DNA from: Escherichia phage St11Ph5
Sequence record: NC_070873.1
DNA length: 64,000 nt
Reading direction: 5' to 3' (one strand)
Below, piece by piece: positions 33,953 to 63,590 of this stretch; the stretch's first letter is position 1; each line of letters opens with the position of its first letter. A program made the position numbers and the translations under genes. The notes below the pieces were generated by a model that was not told the origin of the DNA, did no database searches, and saw only the letters and a program-made list of their open reading frames with translations.

Positions 33953-34352
33953 TATCGTGAAGGGTTCTGTTAGAATCCTTTGAGATAGGAACTCCTATCA
34001 TAACCTTTCTTAACTTAATCTTTGCCGTATGGCACTGACGCTAGGGTTTATGCCCATCCGTCAGGTAGACTATTTTAAGAATGGGTTATCACAGCAAATG
34101 TAAAGCAACATTCGGGTTAATCAATGGCCTCTCCCTATAGGGGCCATTTCTGAATCTTAGGCTATATCCCAAAGGTTAGCATCTTTGGGATAAGGCTTCA
34201 GATCCCTTATCAACTAACGCTCATGCTGAGCACAACATTAACCAATAATGTCGGATAGTTCATTACGCTATTCATCCAGCATCGAGATGTTAGGTCTTAC
34301 ATGTAACATAGGGTATAAAGGGAGGACTCGTCCCCTCCCTCCTATTATAATG

Positions 34353-34422
34353 GTCGGGGTAGCACGTAGGCATGTGCAGAAGGTCGCTACTTCTCTCGCT
34401 GGTTCGAATCCAGCCCCTGACC
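34353..34422 (+). tRNA. candidate tRNA (70 nt; anticodon loop reads gt-CGC-ta), no encoded CCA
   Basis: Hand fold: acceptor 34353-59/34415-21 (7 bp, one G-U), D-stem GCAC/GTGC, anticodon stem AGAAG/CTTCT, T-stem GCTGG/CCAGC with TTCGAAT loop; short variable region is atypical. Confidence 0.4.
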
Positions 34423-34878
34423 TACTGACATCCTATCAATGAGTACATTAGGCTAACGTGCGGAGGTTTACACTGTAGCCGGTGTAGGTGGAGAAGACGG
34501 CAGGGTAGCTACCTGTGCTTAGTGTACTCTTTGATAGTTTTCGTAAGCGATTATGCGGTTTTTTAGAAATGAACCAATAACATAAATGCAAACGATGATG
34601 TTGTTCTGATGGCGGCGTAATAGCCTGTAAGTCAGCAAGGTCTTCCTATTCCTTGTAAATAAATTCGGCGCAGTGGCCCGCTGTAATTAATAATGGGCAC
34701 ACAACAGGTAAGAGCATTGGGTAATGTCAGCCTTGGTTCGAAGTCGAAAGACATGCGGTAATACCCAGCCAAAGTTCCAGTGCTCTTTCCGTTGTGGAAA
34801 TGCAAGCACAACAAGTCCAGACGATATCTGAGTGACTATAAAAACAGATGGAGCCAGGTGGAATCCCTGGCAATCAAT

Positions 34879-57506: not shown

Positions 57507-59777
57507 TTATAAGTTCATACCAAGAGCCGATGCTGGGTCTTGGCTAGGGTCATAAAACTGGGAACTAAGTGAATAAGTCGGGTCTTGCTGTGCAGCTAAG
57601 TCACGTTCCTGTAAAGAGTTCCCGTTAGTCAAAGTGTTATATCCGACAGCAGCAGATATATTGGGGGTAGTTTCACCTTCTTTAGTAGGTGTTGTCAACG
57701 CCTTAGTTATTTGAAGGTTCTGGTTTCCTTGAGACTGTGCTTTTTGTTTCTCCATATCACGAGCATGTTTAGTACCAGATTCCTGTTCCAGATAATCCAG
57801 GTCTTTAAGATCACCACTAGAAATAGCTTCTTTAGCTTTAGCATTATTGAGTGCAATCTTACTTTTCAACTCTTCATTCTCAAGCTGTGCTTTCTGAATT
57901 GCCAATTGCTTAAGCTGTTCTTCCATAGGGTCTGGCTGTGGTTTCCATGTACGTAATTCATGAGCAAGGTCCGGCATACGTTTAAGTTCTGCAATCTTAG
58001 CTACAAGAGATAACGTAATAGTCTGGTCAACTGTATTACCTAATGTTTGAACCATGAAGCTTAAATCCTGAGACTTCTGGTTATCAATTTCAGCAGTATT
58101 AATATCAACCTCAATATCGAAGTTACCTTTAAGGTCTTCACGATTAATTTCTACATACTGCTCATTAGTAATACGTACCACTTCCTTCTCAGATAAGAAC
58201 ACAGCATTCATTGCACAAATCTTAGTACCAATGTCTGCCATACCCTTAGCTAATCGACGAAGGATTGCCATCTCACGTTTGGATGCTGCATCAAGTGCAC
58301 CACGAATACCAGCAGCCACATCTCCATACGCTGCACCAGTTACGCCACCAGAAAATGCTTTAACACCTGTTAGTGCTTCTGCTTCCTGATTCTGCATCTG
58401 AGTCATTACTATTGCCGACTGAGGTAGTTCCGGGAACTTATGCTCCATAATGGCCTGACTAGGGTTACCCTGCATTGGGTTGTATTCATAGTCTTGCCCG
58501 TCATCATATCGACGACGGTTCAGGGTATCTAACATCCCCTTGGGGTAACCACGCTGTCCATTTGCACTTCGACCTAACAGGTCAATCATCCCACGCATAG
58601 TTGCACCAAGAATTGCTTGGTTATCTCCTAACAGTTCAGCATCAGCCTCACCATAGAGTTCACGTTTACGAGGCATATAGGGAACAACTACCAAGGGCAA
58701 CTTACCATCCGGGAATGGGTTCTTCTCCATACGAATAAGAGTAGAGCCAATCCAGGTAGCGACAATTGGTTCCAGTGAACCATCATCGTTGATGTCATAG
58801 AATCCCCAGTATTCATAAGCGACTACTTTCTTACGAAGTGCATCCTTAAACTGGAAGTCACCAGGAGTTTTACTTTCATGGTCTGGGTCAGTCATAGGAC
58901 TGGAACTTTCCCAGTCAATCTTATCCAGGTTATGGTAACGGTCTTTGTTCTTCATAAGGTCTGCTTTGCACGTCTCAAATGAGATAACTGCATAAAGAGC
59001 CTTATCCAAATCACCATTACAGCTTGGGTCAATAACTACGTTATTTGGGTTAAGCATTTCAACAGTAGGTCTGTTAACCAGTGCTTTCTCTACTTCTACA
59101 TCAGTAACACCAGTCTGAATTGCATAGGTAGCTTCTCCAGTTTCATTGAAGTAGTTAACAGCTTCCTTGATATCTTCCGGCATTGTTTCATCATACTCAC
59201 GGGGATTCTCTGCCTGAAGCTGTAGAGCCTGCTGAAGAATATCTGCTTGTTCCTGGTTCTCAATTGGATACAACTGGAAGACTGGAGTTTCTGTTTTAAT
59301 CTTAACAGTCTTACGTTCCCAACCGATACGAGCAATACCAGTACCATCATCTACGACACTGTGTACGTAATCATCCACCAATTTTACTTTATTAAGCTGG
59401 GTACGGAATTGGTAGTTAAGAACTAGCTCATTCTGACGTGCAGCTAACTCATCTTCAAAAGTTACAGGGGTTACCTTAAAGAGTTTATTGGATGAGAGGA
59501 ATGGTTCAGACAATGGTGCATAACGCCATTCTGCCTGACGGCGAACCAGTCTAGGTTGGACTTGTGAACGACCTTTAACCTTTGGGGGTTTAGCCTTACC
59601 CTTAACTTCCATCAGGTCATTCCACTCACGAATCTGTGCCATGATTGCATCGTGGGCAGGTTTAGCTGATTCCAAATCGCCTTTCAGTAATTGGATACTT
59701 GGTTCCTTCTTCCAGTCCGTTAACTTCTCTGATTGAGCCGGGTCTGGTAAAGGCTTAAAAGTGTCTTGGTGTTCCAT
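57507..59777 (-). CDS. portal protein (N4 gp59-like size/position; 756 aa)
   Basis: About 750-aa ORF upstream of the scaffold/capsid genes on the late strand. Confidence 0.6.
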
Positions 59778-59779
59778 AG

Positions 59780-60286
59780 TTATTCCTGTTCAAAAAGTTT
59801 ACGGTCAGCCTGAATCTGTTTACCCAACTCAATTAGTTGGCTGTCACGGAGTCTAACAGTTGCCCGGAGTTCTTCAACCAAACGTCTGCCTTCTTCAAGA
59901 CTGTTGTCGAGTCTGGCTGCATGGCTTGCAAGACTTCTGCACTCAAAGGTTCCGGATTCGGCTTGACGTTTATATACCGATGCTCGTCTTTCAGACTGTT
60001 GCATCCGGCTGTCGTAATCACTGCTAACGCGAGCAAGCTCGCTTGCGTAATTACTCTCAGCCGTCTGCAACCGGGAAGTGAGTAACCCGACTTCATAACT
60101 ATGGTTTCTTTGGAGAGCATTGTATTTGTCCTGTAATTTTTGTGTTGCCTTTTGGTCTTCGACCTTTTGGGCATCCCACTTCTTTTGAACAGTAGACTGT
60201 CCATTGGAGTTACCCCAAAAGTAAATGGTGGCCCCAAGGACCACCACCAGAAGATAAGGCCAACCTTTAGAGATTAGCATCTTCAT
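59780..60286 (-). CDS. i-spanin (Rz-like): N-terminal TM helix plus periplasmic coiled coil
   Basis: [26 protein letters not shown] then charged coiled-coil region; GGAGG 6 nt upstream of the ATG at 60286; directly downstream of the endolysin. Confidence 0.55.
59833..60096 (-). CDS. o-spanin (Rz1-like) lipoprotein embedded in the +1 frame of the i-spanin gene
   Basis: Signal peptide with lipobox-like ITTAGC and a Pro-rich mature region, entirely inside the Rz-like gene. Confidence 0.45.
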   Translation of the reverse strand: MKSGYSLPGCRRLRVITQASLLALAVITTAGCNSLKDEHRYINVKPNPEPLSAEVLQAMQPDSTTVLKKADVWLKNSGQLLDSVTAN

Positions 60287-60902
60287 TACATGCCTCCAGT
60301 GGCACATTGCCTATTCGGTTAGCTACCCAACCATACGTAAAGTCTGGCATGTTTAATGAGGTGTAGTGGTTCAGTTGTTTGGCATCAAGTAACTTAATCA
60401 TTACCTGACATGCTGCAACTTTGCCTCGTTTTTTCTGTAATGCTTTATATGCATTAACAGTACTTGTACCGACTTTACCATCAACCTGTATTTTAGGGTA
60501 GTCTTTGCCGTCACGGGACATTTCATTAAGAGATAACTGCAACCACTTAGCAGGACGGGTTACACCAGTGTTAACACCAGCATCAACCAGCTTGTGTGTT
60601 ACAGCAGGAGATATATCAGCAAAGGCTACGAAGTTAGGCTTAAGTACGTAGTCATCAATGTATATCTCAGCAGCCATCTCTTTAGACAAACCTTTCATAG
60701 AACCATCCCAACCATACTCAGTAGCCAGAACTTCTTTATGAGATTTAGCTACCGATTGGGTAATTCCATGGTTAGTTTCCCCACCTGGGTCACGAGGATT
60801 GTTTACGTAACCCCCTTCCATATAGAACACTGCCCCCAGGATAGCAGCGACAACTCCTCCCACTGCACCACCTTTCGCAGCAAGTTTTTGTTTAGCTTTC
60901 AT
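60267..60902 (-). CDS. endolysin, GH108-type N-acetylmuramidase with N-terminal SAR-like segment and PG-binding-like C-terminus (211 aa)
   Basis: EGGYVNNPRDPGGETNHGIT (GH108 EGGY motif); Gly/Ala-rich weakly hydrophobic N-terminus. Confidence 0.75.
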   Translation of the reverse strand: MKAKQKLAAKGGAVGGVVAAILGAVFYMEGGYVNNPRDPGGETNHGITQSVAKSHKEVLATEYGWDGSMKGLSKEMAAEIYIDDYVLKPNFVAFADISPAVTHKLVDAGVNTGVTRPAKWLQLSLNEMSRDGKDYPKIQVDGKVGTSTVNAYKALQKKRGKVAACQVMIKLLDAKQLNHYTSLNMPDFTYGWVANRIGNVPLEACNEDANL

Positions 60903-61152
60903 GTGAATCTTCCTTTGGTCGGAAACGTATTAATCTGCCTATGATATTTAAGGCAAACAGTGCGATTGCAATATTGGAACCATGAGGAATGTCTTCCAGG
61001 ATGTGTCGAGGTAATCCTGTCAGCATTGGTTGGATAATATCTATGGCAGAAAACATAATTAACCCAAGCGTACTAATCTGAATGGATGCCCACTTCCAGC
61101 ATCTTTTCCAGTTAGGTACTAACTCTACCTTTCTATTTAACCTGCGAACCAT
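60892..61152 (-). CDS. holin-like small membrane protein (2 TM; 86 aa; start moved to internal ATG)
   Basis: Two hydrophobic helices; GGGAG 8 nt upstream of the ATG at 61152; immediately upstream of the SAR endolysin. Confidence 0.4.
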   Translation of the reverse strand: MVRRLNRKVELVPNWKRCWKWASIQISTLGLIMFSAIDIIQPMLTGLPRHILEDIPHGSNIAIALFALNIIGRLIRFRPKEDSHES

Positions 61153-61466
61153 GCGAATATCTCCCGTCTTGCAGCAGCCAATACACCAATAATTGCACCT
61201 GCCCCAGCCCATACCCACTTACCGAAAATCCCTGCACCAACAACTTTATGCTTAATGGTGATGAACTCTTCAATAGTAGGTTCATTCTTAGCTAAGCTAT
61301 CCTCCACATTCTTTAGTCTATTGCCTATGTCATTGATTGAATCTCGTAGTTCTACTAGAGTCTCCTCTAGTTTCTCACGGTCCTGCCTTTCCCTTGTCTG
61401 GTTCTCAAACAGAGTCTTCAATCGTTCCTCCAACCTGACTAGGAGTAGTTCACCCGATTCATTCAT
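61137..61466 (-). CDS. coiled-coil protein with C-terminal TM anchor (109 aa)
   Basis: Charged helical N-terminus, GAGIFGKWVWAGAGAIIGVLAA C-terminal hydrophobic segment. Confidence 0.45.
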   Translation of the reverse strand: MNESGELLLVRLEERLKTLFENQTRERQDREKLEETLVELRDSINDIGNRLKNVEDSLAKNEPTIEEFITIKHKVVGAGIFGKWVWAGAGAIIGVLAAARREIFAWFAG

Positions 61467-61639
61467 AATATTACCGTAGTTGTGTAGTTAGAATCCCCAA
61501 TAGGGTCATATCATAAGATGACTCATAGATAATACTTAGTATGATGGAGTACATCCAGACATAGTGTCTGCCTTAGACATTATTGTAAGAAGTGCAGGTA
61601 CAGTGAGAGAATGGGGAATGCAAACAGTAAACTCTATAT

Positions 61640-61668
61640 AGGAAAAGCCCCCTTAATTGGGGGCTTTT
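61640..61668 (-). terminator. terminator-like hairpin downstream of the tailspike gene
   Basis: AAAGCCCCC-TTAATT-GGGGGCTTT then U-rich on the minus strand. Confidence 0.5.
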
Positions 61669-61682
61669 AGTAATGTCACATG

Positions 61683-63590
61683 TTATACAAAGTAAACCAA
61701 TGTACCTATGATACGTGAATTATTCCCCAGTGCTGCAACAGAACCAGAAATACCCACTGCTGAGGCTGTAGATGCAGAGATCATGATATTGGAGTTCAGT
61801 GCTTCTGCTCGGATATACAAGCCATAAACAGGTAAGGCAAGTTCAGCATAGTAGCCTACACTACCTGTACCTGTGGTATCACCACACGCAAAAGGCAGAC
61901 CTAAAATTGCTGACTGATTCCCTGTACCAATAGTATTGATATGAATATCAAACTCTACTGTTACCTTACGACCTTCTTTACGGTACTTACCCTTCTGAAT
62001 GTTATAAGTAGCATTACCACCTACAGAAGGGGTCCATGTACCTTCTATAACATCAGAGGATGTCCATGCATTTGGTGATAATGGTGGGTTATTGACAACA
62101 GTGAATTTAGCACCAGCACCTGAGTTGTAGGGGATGAATACAGGATTAATACGAGCAAAGGTGTTATTAACCTGTTCATCAAGGTTGTTCATATCAATCA
62201 GAACCTGTCCATTAGCAAATGTACTAACAGCAATATCCTCTACTACCCAATCACGTAGCTTAACGTTACCATCCATCATTCCGATGATGCGACCATTATT
62301 CCCTATCTTCTCACTATGCATGTTGATGTAACAGTTACGGATTCGTACACTCTGTGGGAAAAGGTAGTTTGCAGGATTAGTCTTGTCACTAAGTACTGAA
62401 ACCATCCAAGGTCGTACAGCTGTACTCACCTCTGTGTAGTATCCATCAATAATAGCACCGTGAGCATTTGGCCCAAGAAGAATACCTCCAGTACAGTGGT
62501 GTGCGTTACCTCCAATTACACGGCACATTGTAGAGTTGATATATGCAAAGTAACCTAAGTCTTGGTTATCGTATGCACCCATTGAGCAATCACGTATGGT
62601 AAATCGTGAGTTACCGCCATCATAGGCACTACCATCAGTCTTCTTGCCAAGGAGAGCTATGAAACTACCAGTTGCTACTGTACTGAAGTAGGTATGTTTC
62701 TCACAACACTCAATGATCCCATCCCAGTTCTCATACTGAGAATAGATGTCATAGGTTGCAGAGTTACCATAGTCCATAAAGATGCAGTATCTGATTCTAG
62801 GTGTGAATACGAAGGACTTAATGAAAATACCGAAACCTGCTTGCACACCACCAGTGAATCGCAGACCCTCTATAGTGTATTCAGACTGATAGAAGTTATC
62901 AGCAGTAGGTGCATCTTCTGGAGTTGGGTCACCTAAGTACATTGCTGCACCAGTACCTGAGTAGTCCAGAGTAGCTGACTGAAAACCATATACTGCTACA
63001 GGGCGTGTAAAGTTTATACCAGTAGTATACTTATAATGACCAGCAGGAAAGATAACAGAAATGGGTGCAGAGTATTTGGCTCGGGAGTTTACCCAAGCAA
63101 CCATAGCCTGAATAGCAGCAGTGTCATCGGTAATCCCATCACCTACTGCACCAAAGTCCTTCAGACTTACCCAATCACCTAATGCAGCCTGTACAGTGCG
63201 AGCAACTTCACCAACACGTCCGGTAATGTGACCAACCTTACTAGAGCCAGTGTTAGAAGCCAGTTCGTCATATACTGCTGTAATGGCTTCATTGACTCGT
63301 ACAGCAATGTCATTTGGTGCAGGAAGTAGACTAACGGTAATACCCCCTGGGTTATAGGTTAATTGGTCACCATTTACATTAGCAATGGTTGCCCCGGAGG
63401 GGAGAGTAGGTAAAGTCCATATCTTCTTAGCATTACGATCGAAGAGTATAGTCTTATCATCTAGCAATGTATTAGTATTCGTACTGAGAATAACTTTACC
63501 TTCTGCTACGTTACATGCACGAGCAATGGCTTGTATATTGGTAAGAATACCCGTAGAGCCTTTACCACCTTGAGAGAACATCTCGTTCAT
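61683..63590 (-). CDS. tailspike/tail fibre with pectate-lyase-like right-handed beta-helix domain (635 aa)
   Basis: LKDFGAVGDGITDDTAAIQAMV is the characteristic N-terminal motif of pectate-lyase-3/beta-helix depolymerase domains. Confidence 0.7.
   Translation of the reverse strand: MNEMFSQGGKGSTGILTNIQAIARACNVAEGKVILSTNTNTLLDDKTILFDRNAKKIWTLPTLPSGATIANVNGDQLTYNPGGITVSLLPAPNDIAVRVNEAITAVYDELASNTGSSKVGHITGRVGEVARTVQAALGDWVSLKDFGAVGDGITDDTAAIQAMVAWVNSRAKYSAPISVIFPAGHYKYTTGINFTRPVAVYGFQSATLDYSGTGAAMYLGDPTPEDAPTADNFYQSEYTIEGLRFTGGVQAGFGIFIKSFVFTPRIRYCIFMDYGNSATYDIYSQYENWDGIIECCEKHTYFSTVATGSFIALLGKKTDGSAYDGGNSRFTIRDCSMGAYDNQDLGYFAYINSTMCRVIGGNAHHCTGGILLGPNAHGAIIDGYYTEVSTAVRPWMVSVLSDKTNPANYLFPQSVRIRNCYINMHSEKIGNNGRIIGMMDGNVKLRDWVVEDIAVSTFANGQVLIDMNNLDEQVNNTFARINPVFIPYNSGAGAKFTVVNNPPLSPNAWTSSDVIEGTWTPSVGGNATYNIQKGKYRKEGRKVTVEFDIHINTIGTGNQSAILGLPFACGDTTGTGSVGYYAELALPVYGLYIRAEALNSNIMISASTASAVGISGSVAALGNNSRIIGTLVYFV

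Follow-up and report, generated by a model that had tools for sequence, protein, structure and literature searches.

A probable N4-type lysis cassette with an embedded o-spanin gene in Escherichia phage St11Ph5

Lysis genes of phage N4

The best point of comparison for the locus described here is the gp60-63 cassette of phage N4, which lyses E. coli in ~25 minutes (preprint, Awuah et al., bioRxiv 10.1101/2025.11.12.688109; the preprint is dated 2026). For the first description of the N4 endolysin the preprint cites Stojkovic and Rothman-Denes (2007), and it also cites work in which muramidase activity of gp61 is reported. By experiment gp61 is a SAR endolysin, which works in the hy21 background and functions with the lambda holin and the phage 21 pinholin alike. 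Charge insertions into its SAR domain lead to rapid lysis, for which a single charge suffices, and the exchange G12E has the same effect (10.1101/2025.11.12.688109). As far as the preprint and the earlier work it summarises describe it, gp61 associates with the membrane and leaks from it at a slow rate, and holins bring about its synchronous release.

Two more membrane proteins belong to the N4 cassette. The coiled-coil protein gp63 with one C-terminal transmembrane domain (TMD) is both pinholin and master timer: it complements the S21 pinholin defect only, is lethal on expression, and mutations in it shift lysis timing, with S62F leading to rapid lysis (10.1101/2025.11.12.688109). The protein gp62 gives partial, late complementation of both holin defects and is deletable; it triggered only after ~2 hours and its deletion leaves lysis unimpaired. 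Since it released the soluble 17.8-kDa lambda endolysin as well as SAR endolysin, gp62 is regarded as a late, non-essential large-hole holin. Finally, gp60 and gp60a are functional spanins that complement lambda Rz/Rz1 amber mutants (10.1101/2025.11.12.688109). The N4 embedded spanin family is listed with Bp4, EC1-UPM, ECBP1, pSb-1 and G7C (Kongari 2018).

Layout of the St11Ph5 cassette and its relatives

St11Ph5 can be placed by its sequence in the genus Gamaleyavirus (G7C/Bp4-like, Schitoviridae) and is thus an N4-like podophage. Within the window, i.e., the whole 64-kb stretch of St11Ph5 DNA that was analysed, the ORF list and the sequence reveal five tightly overlapping lysis genes on the minus strand at 59780-61466, 3' of the tailspike gene and directly 5' of the portal gene. 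The features are as follows, with their basis in brackets.

61643..61668, minus strand: 10-bp GC-rich hairpin (fold energy, match in a terminator-like scan)
61137..61466, minus strand: gp63-like protein, 109 aa (ORF, hydropathy, phrog_5211, identity to N4 gp63)
60892..61152, minus strand: gp62-like membrane protein with two TMDs, 86 aa (hydropathy, DUF7940, phrog_1356)
60267..60902, minus strand: putative SAR-type endolysin, 211 aa (PF05838, PF09374, phrog_315)
60819..60872, minus strand: putative SAR segment of the endolysin, residues 11-28 (composition, Kyte-Doolittle maximum, layout in relatives)
60807-60818, minus strand: EGGY motif of the endolysin, residues 29-32 (read from the sequence)
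59780..60286, minus strand: i-spanin (Rz-like), 168 aa (phrog_6197, AlphaFold2 model, identity to N4 gp60)
59833..60096, minus strand: o-spanin (Rz1-like, gp60a-like), 87-aa precursor (ORF, lipobox, conservation)
60001..60012, minus strand: o-spanin lipobox T-A-G-C, with the Cys32 codon at 60001-60003 (read from the sequence)

The start/stop overlaps between the cassette genes are 16, 11 and 20 nt, the 16-nt overlap being that of the gp63-like gene with the holin gene, and Shine-Dalgarno (SD) sequences precede the starts of holin, endolysin and i-spanin. Therefore, the cassette genes are translationally coupled. The hairpin at 61643-61668 (-17.5 kcal/mol, z -3.0) lies just 3' of the tailspike gene stop and forms a terminator-like boundary upstream of the cassette. 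Hits in a scan for sigma-70 promoters did not exceed those in shuffled sequences and none lay on the coding strand, and a search of the whole window against Rfam gave no match. Three antisense ORFs on the plus strand (60594-60944, 59837-60085 and 61255-61479) have no Pfam match and were discarded as spurious, and a paper on lysis in KBNP1315 was set aside as irrelevant, this phage being SP6-like.

The five proteins share 66, 63, 67, 54 and 61% global identity with N4 gp63, gp62, gp61, gp60 and gp60a, respectively, and are encoded in an unchanged order beside the portal gene; St11Ph5 and N4 belong to different genera (Gamaleyavirus and Enquatrovirus). Both phages also share the SAR layout of the endolysin, the o-spanin embedded in the +1 frame with a mature form of 56 residues, and PTIEEFITIKHKVVGAG in gp63. 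In a comparison spanning Schitoviridae subfamilies, the order gp63-like/gp62-like/endolysin/spanin/portal was present in N4, KP8, HN01, Ea9-2, Pokken, Holyagarpour and RiverRider. In Axy13 the gp62 annotation alone is missing, and Philippe has a different holin and no gp63/gp62 homologue. In the Gamaleyavirus relatives ShWW44 (PQ900156), G7C (NC_015933), Bp4, ECBP1, pSb-1, RudolfBernhard_Bas96 and Mimir124 the cassette is 94-97% identical at the nucleotide level, the differences being point substitutions mostly at third codon positions. ShWW44 is collinear with St11Ph5 (megablast, 96.7% over 59700-61700 and 95.0% over 25 kb), and its record annotates all five cassette CDS with the same coordinates. 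What can be seen directly in St11Ph5 are the genes with their domains, motifs and reading frames, as well as their conservation and orthology.

Taken together, it is likely, with a probability of about 0.85, that the conserved late lysis cassette of an N4-like Gamaleyavirus podophage is encoded here, with a five-step mechanism of the N4 type. As such it is the standard host-lysis cluster of a G7C/N4-like E. coli phage, which has already been described; all of its parts have been either catalogued or studied by experiment in close relatives or in phages with orthologous genes, and the value of the analysis lies in annotation. The mechanism would begin with export by Sec of the GH108 muramidase, which its weakly hydrophobic, Gly/Ala-rich N-terminal helix would tether, inactive, in the inner membrane; the SAR helix would end one residue before the catalytic-motif Glu. 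The gp63-like protein would then build up and trigger as a pinholin, with depolarisation of the membrane and exit of the SAR helix from the bilayer, and the released endolysin would refold and degrade the murein. As a second, auxiliary holin the gp62-like protein may trigger later and form large holes. Once the murein is gone, the i-spanin, a helical protein of the inner membrane, and the o-spanin, a lipoprotein of the outer membrane, would fuse both membranes and the cell would burst. The functional roles assigned to the St11Ph5 proteins rest on 54-67% identity to their N4 counterparts and on a preprint, and what is said on behaviour in the membrane, on the size of the holes and on the sequence of steps is transferred by orthology. 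Hole size and timing of holins are allele-specific and can change with few substitutions, so that the division into pinholin and large-hole holin may carry over to St11Ph5 inexactly.

Endolysin and holin candidates

The endolysin matches Pfam Glyco_hydro_108 (PF05838, residues 24-113, E 6.3e-20, 71.9 bits at a cut-off of 21.2) and, at its C-terminus, PG_binding_3 (PF09374, residues 117-196, E 1.5e-7, 31.9 bits at a cut-off of 24.6), as well as phrog_315 'endolysin' (E 2.4e-41) and the PDB entries 6V3Z and 6V40 (E 7e-27 and 5e-20). By homology it is a GH108 N-acetylmuramidase of the N4 gp61 family, for which muramidase activity is predicted. Its N-terminus reads MKAKQKLAAK and continues with GGAVGGVVAAILGAVFYM, which leads directly into E29-GGY, the catalytic motif. 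All 18 residues of GGAVGGVVAAILGAVFYM (residues 11-28) are uncharged, nine of them are Gly or Ala, and the highest 19-residue Kyte-Doolittle mean of the N-terminus is 1.78. A Gly/Ala-rich uncharged stretch directly before EGGY was found in 13 of the 13 relatives with a recovered N-terminus and, by pairwise alignment, in N4 as well, where G12 of gp61 corresponds to G15 of St11Ph5. The soluble GH108 muramidases in PDB (6V3Z Sen1395, 6V40, 2IKB, 2IS5) have the GH108 fold, EGGY and PG_binding_3 in common with the phage enzyme. However, their N-terminal helix is polar (DEILGKEGGY, DEIFAAILSREGGY), whereas that of St11Ph5 is an uncharged, Gly/Ala-rich putative membrane segment, and they are not encoded by phage lysis-cassette genes. 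A single-sequence AlphaFold2 model of the endolysin (mean pLDDT 33.7) was unusable. Since the St11Ph5 enzyme is 67-70% identical to N4 gp61, which is a SAR endolysin by experiment, its assignment to the SAR type is supported, which agrees with an earlier note on this DNA that had described a GH108 EGGY enzyme with a Gly/Ala-rich, weakly hydrophobic N-terminus of the SAR type.

Membrane topology was derived from hydropathy and the positive-inside rule. The gp62-like protein has hydropathy peaks at residues 22-40 (1.71) and 59-77 (1.46) and a predicted N-in/C-in topology. It matches DUF7940 (E 2.7e-14) and phrog_1356 'holin' (E 5e-30), beyond which no Pfam, NCBIfam or PHROG match and no named pinholin family was found. 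With 63-67% identity to N4 gp62, it may well be an auxiliary large-hole holin. A strong SD (GGGAG) is located 8 nt before its ATG 61152. A longer form is possible, since upstream no stop codon interrupts the frame as far as GTG 61218 and ATG 61212; unlike in N4, the long form would start with GTG or a second ATG, and the 22-codon extension is open in some lineages only.

In the gp63-like protein, a cytoplasmic coiled-coil region and the conserved PTIEEFITIKHKVVGAG ('LIN domain') are combined with a single C-terminal TMD (hydropathy peak of 1.59 at residues 80-98). It matches phrog_5211, a family of unknown function (E 4.5e-50), and shows weak matches to coiled-coil Pfam families. It shares 66% (global) to 68% (tblastn) of its residues with N4 gp63, PTIEEFITIKHKVVGAG is identical in both proteins, and 21 columns are invariant across 11 lineages. 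By length, coiled coil, LIN motif and TMD it fits the N4 gp63 pinholin family, and we infer that it acts as pinholin and lysis timer of St11Ph5. The gene at 61137-61466 lies inside the range covered by the earlier note, where it was left undescribed.

The arrangement would resemble S21/R21 of phage 21 in that a membrane-tethered endolysin is freed when a small-hole holin depolarises the membrane. The phage 21 pinholin S21 has two TMDs in N-in/C-in topology, whereas the putative St11Ph5 pinholin combines a single C-terminal TMD with a long coiled coil in the cytoplasm. Furthermore, R21 is of the T4-lysozyme type and the St11Ph5 endolysin a GH108 enzyme with PG_binding_3, and unlike the phage 21 system the St11Ph5 cassette probably holds a second, large-hole holin.

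Three other readings of these genes have to be weighed against the proposed one. The two-TMD protein at 60892-61152 could itself be an S21-like pinholin serving an R21-like endolysin, with the 109-aa protein having no role in lysis. Its topology is that of the phage 21 pinholin, its relatives are labelled 'holin', and it co-occurs with a SAR endolysin in nearly all N4-like genomes. However, the St11Ph5 protein matches only DUF7940 and phrog_1356, its N4 homologue also frees soluble endolysin, late and dispensably, and in N4 it was gp63 that complemented the pinholin defect only and set the timing; we therefore regard this assignment as unlikely. For the same reason the earlier note, which had taken the adjacent two-TMD protein for the pinholin, has to be corrected, as gp62 of N4 is the large-hole holin and gp63 the pinholin. 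Nor does a SAR endolysin by itself imply pinholin triggering, as had been assumed there, since N4 gp61 functioned with either type of holin. Less probable still is that the endolysin N-terminus is a cleavable Sec signal peptide and the enzyme is secreted in soluble form. Basic residues followed by a hydrophobic stretch would suit a signal peptide, and V-A-A and L-G-A in this stretch can be read as signal-peptidase sites. But a polar c-region is absent, and the uncharged stretch reaches Met28, directly before the catalytic-motif Glu29. Cleavage would moreover take away part of the GH108 fold, because residues 19-28 align with the first helix region of the soluble GH108 structures. N4 gp61, as far as it is described in the preprint, is membrane-associated and holin-released, and one charge in its SAR domain results in rapid lysis (10.1101/2025.11.12.688109). 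The least credible of the three makes the 109-aa gene product a virion protein, either a tail tape-measure or a tail needle protein. It draws on the labels of relatives, 'tail length tape-measure protein (T)' and 'tail needle protein', and on the coiled-coil character, but the protein has only 109 aa and a C-terminal TMD, and its gene heads the lysis cassette with the 16-nt overlap to the holin gene. In addition, N4 gp63 is lethal when expressed, complements a pinholin defect and alters timing when mutated. In many database records the gp63 orthologue, the likely lysis timer, carries a wrong label as tape-measure or tail-needle protein.

Mimir124 and Bas96 carry a gp63/gp62 allele other than that of St11Ph5. 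Their gp63 genes differ from that of St11Ph5 by 27-29% of nucleotides, as against 2-8% in the neighbouring endolysin, spanin and portal genes, and gp63 of Mimir124 hardly differs from its counterpart in Klebsiella phage KP8. It is conceivable, yet rather doubtful, that the gp63-like and gp62-like genes are swapped as one timing module among N4-like genera and that alleles of the gp63 regulatory region decide on lysis inhibition. G7C, which belongs to the same genus as St11Ph5, is reported to show no lysis inhibition (10.1101/2025.11.12.688109). In the gp63 regulatory region St11Ph5 has Asn61 in place of Ser62 of N4, and the alternative start Met17 of N4 gp63 is absent, the corresponding residue being Leu16; both differences also speak against a simple transfer of the N4 role to the St11Ph5 protein. 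Correct labels would be useful for engineering N4-like coliphages, for therapy assessment and for tuning burst size or lysis timing.

The spanin pair and its embedded reading frame

The i-spanin has an N-terminal TMD (hydropathy peak of 1.61 at residues 3-21), matches phrog_6197 'Rz-like spanin' (E 7.8e-78) and is 54-57% identical to N4 gp60. In a single-sequence AlphaFold2 model (mean pLDDT 76.9) it forms two long helices (residues 9-111 and 116-167). Together with the TMD and the PHROG match, this points to type II insertion in the inner membrane and a helical domain in the periplasm. The single periplasmic cysteine, Cys116, has a conserved counterpart in six of eight lineages. The SD sequence GGAGG lies 6 nt before ATG 60286, which was therefore preferred over a longer start at ATG 60307.

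The i-spanin ORF (59780-60286) encloses the complete o-spanin ORF (59833-60096), which is in the +1 frame because (60286-60096) mod 3 = 1. Its signal sequence ends in the lipobox T-A-G-C with Cys32, where N4 has IVGC, and satisfies a PROSITE-type lipoprotein pattern; Thr at position -3 is outside the strict [LVI] consensus. Since the residue at +2 is Asn, sorting to the outer membrane is expected. An upstream Cys in SLPGC (precursor residue 10) was rejected as lipobox, as it is too near the N-terminus and no hydrophobic region precedes it. The start is ambiguous: ATG 60096 fits the lipoprotein position rule with a weak SD, and ATG 60120, which has AGGA 8 nt upstream, would give 95 aa. The mature lipoprotein has 56 aa.

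As Pfam, PHROGs and NCBIfam hold no matching model and the SD before ATG 60096 is weak, the +1 ORF could be suspected to be a chance open frame that is not translated, and an ORF of 87 aa or more in an alternative frame indeed arose in 245 of 5000 codon-shuffled i-spanin genes (4.9%). However, such an ORF with a lipoprotein signal was seen in just seven of the 5000 (0.14%). Moreover, the +1 ORF was present in 15 of 15 related loci examined, the lipobox Cys is invariant across 11 aligned lineages, and ORF, Cys and a 19-residue motif of the mature peptide are kept where the i-spanins share only 37-57% identity. By tblastn the o-spanin occurs in 157 phage records, a count equal to that of the i-spanin. 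Substitution density is lowered in the overlap compared with the non-overlapping part of the i-spanin gene, namely 1.1-1.9% against 2.7-4.1% in close relatives, 12.9% against 29.5% in Jgk1 and 27-28% against 48-51% in N4 and KP8. In most distant comparisons the o-spanin is even more conserved than the i-spanin (72% against 53% in Axy13, 61% against 39% in Philippe). Its precursor is 60-61% and its mature part 79% identical to N4 gp60a, and the N4 pair complements lambda Rz/Rz1. Conservation thus effectively refutes a chance frame, and the interpretation of the +1-frame lipoprotein as a true embedded o-spanin of the N4 family, with a predicted role in outer-membrane disruption, is supported.

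The earlier note had proposed just this, a lysis cassette with an o-spanin embedded in the +1 frame of the i-spanin, and ORFs, invariant Cys, lower divergence of the overlap and complementation by the N4 pair bear it out. It was also right that gene callers often miss the o-spanin: the protein is still missing from Pfam, PHROGs, NCBIfam and many GenBank and RefSeq records, including the RefSeq N4 record and the annotations of most relatives. ShWW44 annotates it as CDS 59833-60120, and its equivalent is a CDS in Bas96 and AlfredRasser and a misc_feature in Mimir124. Of the peptide features given in the earlier note, the signal with a lipobox-like end holds, but the mature peptide is not Pro-rich, with 4 Pro in 56 residues (7.1%).

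Similar to lambda Rz/Rz1, an N-terminal TMD is followed in the i-spanin by two helical segments in the periplasm, and the o-spanin lipoprotein gene lies entirely in the i-spanin gene in the +1 frame. The sequence family is a different one, as matches of the St11Ph5 i-spanin to other Rz-like PHROGs are weak (E 5e-5 or worse). Lambda Rz1 is a lipoprotein of about 40 aa that is strongly Pro-rich and has Cys29, whereas the mature St11Ph5 o-spanin has 56 aa and no periplasmic Cys. The i-spanin differs likewise, with one periplasmic Cys in St11Ph5 and two in lambda Rz.

Organisation of the lysis region

The minus strand between 59780 and 61466 carries five tightly packed genes, which confirms the lysis cassette that the earlier note had placed there. 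All five are orthologues of phage N4 genes, with identities of 66, 63, 67, 54, and 61% to gp63, gp62, gp61, gp60, and gp60a, respectively.

Open reading frames (ORFs) and hairpin of the lysis region
61137-61466, minus strand: gp63-like protein, 109 aa
60892-61152, minus strand: gp62-like two-helix protein, 86 aa, frame open up to 61218
60267-60902, minus strand: endolysin, 211 aa
59780-60286, minus strand: i-spanin, 168 aa
59833-60096, minus strand: o-spanin, 87 aa, within the i-spanin gene in the +1 frame, alternative start 60120
61643-61668, minus strand: symmetric hairpin AAAAGCCCCC-TTAATT-GGGGGCTTTT with a 10-bp GC stem, after the upstream tailspike gene (-17.5 kcal/mol, z -3.0)

Consecutive genes of the cassette overlap by 16, 11, and 20 nt, and the i-spanin stop is followed after 2 nt by the start of the portal gene (57507-59777). 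Three starts have a good Shine-Dalgarno sequence: GGGAG for the 86-aa gene, AGGAAG for the endolysin, and GGAGG for the i-spanin. The cassette is separated from the tailspike gene by an intergenic region of 216 nt (61467-61682), on the coding strand of which no promoter was identified; the hairpin could terminate transcription in both directions, and in most relatives the similarity to the window ends past ~61570. The cassette as such is already known, routine and correctly recognisable: its parts were catalogued in 2018, the "N4" embedded spanin family of Kongari et al. (2018) including Bp4, EC1-UPM, ECBP1, pSb-1, and G7C, and the orthologous system, in which N4 gp60-63 lyse E. coli in ~25 minutes, is characterised in a preprint (10.1101/2025.11.12.688109; latest version 2026).

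Endolysin and embedded spanin genes

The endolysin matches the Pfam families Glyco_hydro_108 (E 6.3e-20; 71.9 bits, cut-off 21.2) and PG_binding_3 (31.9 bits, cut-off 24.6), as well as phrog_315 "endolysin" and, among solved structures, the GH108 proteins 6V3Z and 6V40. Its N-terminus consists of MKAKQKLAAK and 18 uncharged residues, GGAVGGVVAAILGAVFYM (Gly/Ala 9/18), followed by E29-GGY. This N-terminus is without a polar c-region for signal peptidase and residues 19-28 already align where soluble GH108 proteins have their first helix region, which fits a signal-arrest-release (SAR) segment joining the folded enzyme. G15 is the counterpart of G12 in N4 gp61. The latter is a SAR endolysin, which leaks slowly when expressed alone and gives rapid lysis after one acidic substitution within the SAR segment (10.1101/2025.11.12.688109), and the earlier assignment as a SAR-type GH108 endolysin is supported.

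The i-spanin has an N-terminal TMD and matches phrog_6197 "Rz-like spanin" (E 7.8e-78), and a single-sequence model predicts two long helices with a break at 112-115 beside the sole Cys (pLDDT 76.9). Inside its gene, the o-spanin has its lipobox Cys32 codon at 60001-60003, and its signal satisfies a PROSITE-type lipoprotein pattern. The residue after the lipobox Cys determines lipoprotein sorting (+2 rule), so that the Asn at this position predicts sorting to the outer membrane. The mature peptide has 4 Pro in 56 aa, and calling it Pro-rich was overstated. When the codons of the i-spanin gene were shuffled, 4.9% of trials produced an ORF of 87 aa or more in another frame, and 0.14% produced one that had a lipoprotein signal. 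The +1 ORF and its lipobox were found in all 15 related loci examined, and full complementation of lambda Rz/Rz1 amber mutants is reported for N4 gp60/gp60a (10.1101/2025.11.12.688109), both of which bear out the proposed embedded o-spanin. Its Cys is invariant over 11 aligned lineages, as is a long motif (N-V-.-P, Q..Q..ST, LLD.V). By tblastn the o-spanin is present in 157 phage records, with the i-spanin equal in count and host spread, and against distant relatives its conservation mostly exceeds that of the i-spanin (Axy13, 72% vs. 53%; Philippe, 61% vs. 39%). Nucleotide divergence is lower in the overlap than in the rest of the i-spanin gene, with 1.1-1.9% vs. 2.7-4.1% against ShWW44, Mimir124, and Bas96, 12.9% vs. 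29.5% against Jgk1, and 27-28% vs. 48-51% against N4 and KP8, a signature of selection on both frames. As had been supposed, gene callers miss this o-spanin: it matches no Pfam, PHROG, or NCBIfam model, is missing from the RefSeq N4 record and goes unannotated in most relatives. Several of the surveyed Schitoviridae records already use the names "i-spanin," "o-spanin," and "SAR endolysin N-acetylmuramidase."

Holin candidates and proposed order of lysis

The gp62-like protein has hydropathy peaks at residues 22-40 and 59-77, flanked by basic termini, and matches DUF7940 and phrog_1356 "holin." The earlier note had assigned the pinholin role to this adjacent 2-TM protein, as implied by the SAR endolysin. 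A SAR endolysin by itself has no such implication; N4 gp61 functions both with the pinholin of phage 21 and with a holin of the lambda type (10.1101/2025.11.12.688109). The assignment is also contradicted by the N4 data, where the deletable gp62 with its two TMDs partly complements both holin defects after ~2 hours, whereas gp63, with a single C-terminal TMD, complements the pinholin defect only, and its deletion from a plasmid cassette delays lysis onset by 20 minutes (10.1101/2025.11.12.688109). The candidate for the true pinholin is thus the gp63-like gene, which lies within the region of the earlier note yet was unmentioned there. Rapid-lysis mutations of N4 gp63 cluster in S62-I72 (10.1101/2025.11.12.688109); the gp63-like protein retains the equivalents of T65, I70, T71, and I72 and the entire PTIEEFITIKHKVVGAG motif, with Asn61 replacing Ser62 and without Met17. 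In many GenBank/RefSeq records gp63 orthologues are named "tail length tape-measure protein (T)," "tape measure protein," or "tail needle protein," and in PHROGs they are of unknown function. The tape-measure and tail-needle labels contradict the N4 pinholin data and are probably a coiled-coil artefact.

The gp62-like frame has 22 more open codons 5' of ATG 61152 (61153-61218; GTG 61218, ATG 61212), which overlap the TMD-coding end of the gp63-like gene. This extension is also open in N4, Bas96, Ea9-2, HN01, and KP8 (24 codons in the latter) and closed in Pokken, Holyagarpour, and RiverRider. The long form, regarded in the N4 preprint as a possible dual-start motif (10.1101/2025.11.12.688109), has no clear Shine-Dalgarno sequence in the window.

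Genes, motifs, reading frames, and orthology to N4 were established by the analysis itself, and from this orthology membrane behaviour, hole size and order of events are inferred for the cassette. The gp63-like pinholin (61137-61466) would trigger and depolarise the membrane, the tethered GH108 enzyme would then exit the membrane, refold and degrade the murein, and finally the spanin pair would fuse inner and outer membranes. The gp62-like two-TMD protein may act late as an auxiliary large-hole holin.

Distribution and mosaicism

The window belongs to Gamaleyavirus (Schitoviridae, Enquatrovirinae), within the G7C/Bp4/ECBP1 group of N4-like coliphages. ShWW44 (PQ900156) is collinear with it without indels over 25 kb, and its CDSs at matching coordinates are annotated as portal protein, Rz-like spanin, embedded "putative Rz/RzI spanin," N-acetylmuramidase, holin, and hypothetical protein. 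A tRNA-Ala (anticodon CGC, 34352-34423, plus strand) was predicted by ARAGORN and is annotated in ShWW44 at identical coordinates; Rfam at gathering threshold gave nothing anywhere in the window and thus no independent support for this call.

In our survey of Schitoviridae the complete gene order is kept in N4, Klebsiella phage KP8, Burkholderia phage HN01, Erwinia phage Ea9-2, Stenotrophomonas phage Pokken, Pseudomonas phage Holyagarpour, and Xanthomonas phage RiverRider, and in Achromobacter phage Axy13 a gp62-like gene exists (35% identity), though unannotated. The N4-like Stenotrophomonas phage Philippe (L005, 1503-1901) has a single unrelated holin of 132 aa instead of the gp63/gp62 pair, no homologue of either being found by tblastn, and its SAR endolysin and embedded spanins are retained; the holin module can therefore be replaced with the remainder of the cassette conserved.

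The least ordinary feature is the mosaicism of the gp63/gp62 timing module (60903-61466) within the genus Gamaleyavirus. Compared with Mimir124 or Bas96, the window differs in nucleotides by 27-29% in gp63 and ~15% in gp62, against 2-8% in the endolysin, spanin, and portal genes alongside, and gp63 of Mimir124 has a nearly identical counterpart outside the genus, in Klebsiella phage KP8. Speculatively, this mosaicism could bear on the presence or absence of lysis inhibition among N4-like phages. In the comparison with ShWW44 (58200-63200), portal, gp63-like, and gp62-like genes diverge by 6.3, 5.8, and 5.0%, respectively, nearly all at third codon positions, whereas the tailspike gene portion 61683-63200 shows 0 differences in 1518 nt; an identical tailspike beside ~5% divergence elsewhere suggests that the tailspike (host-range) module was exchanged recently.
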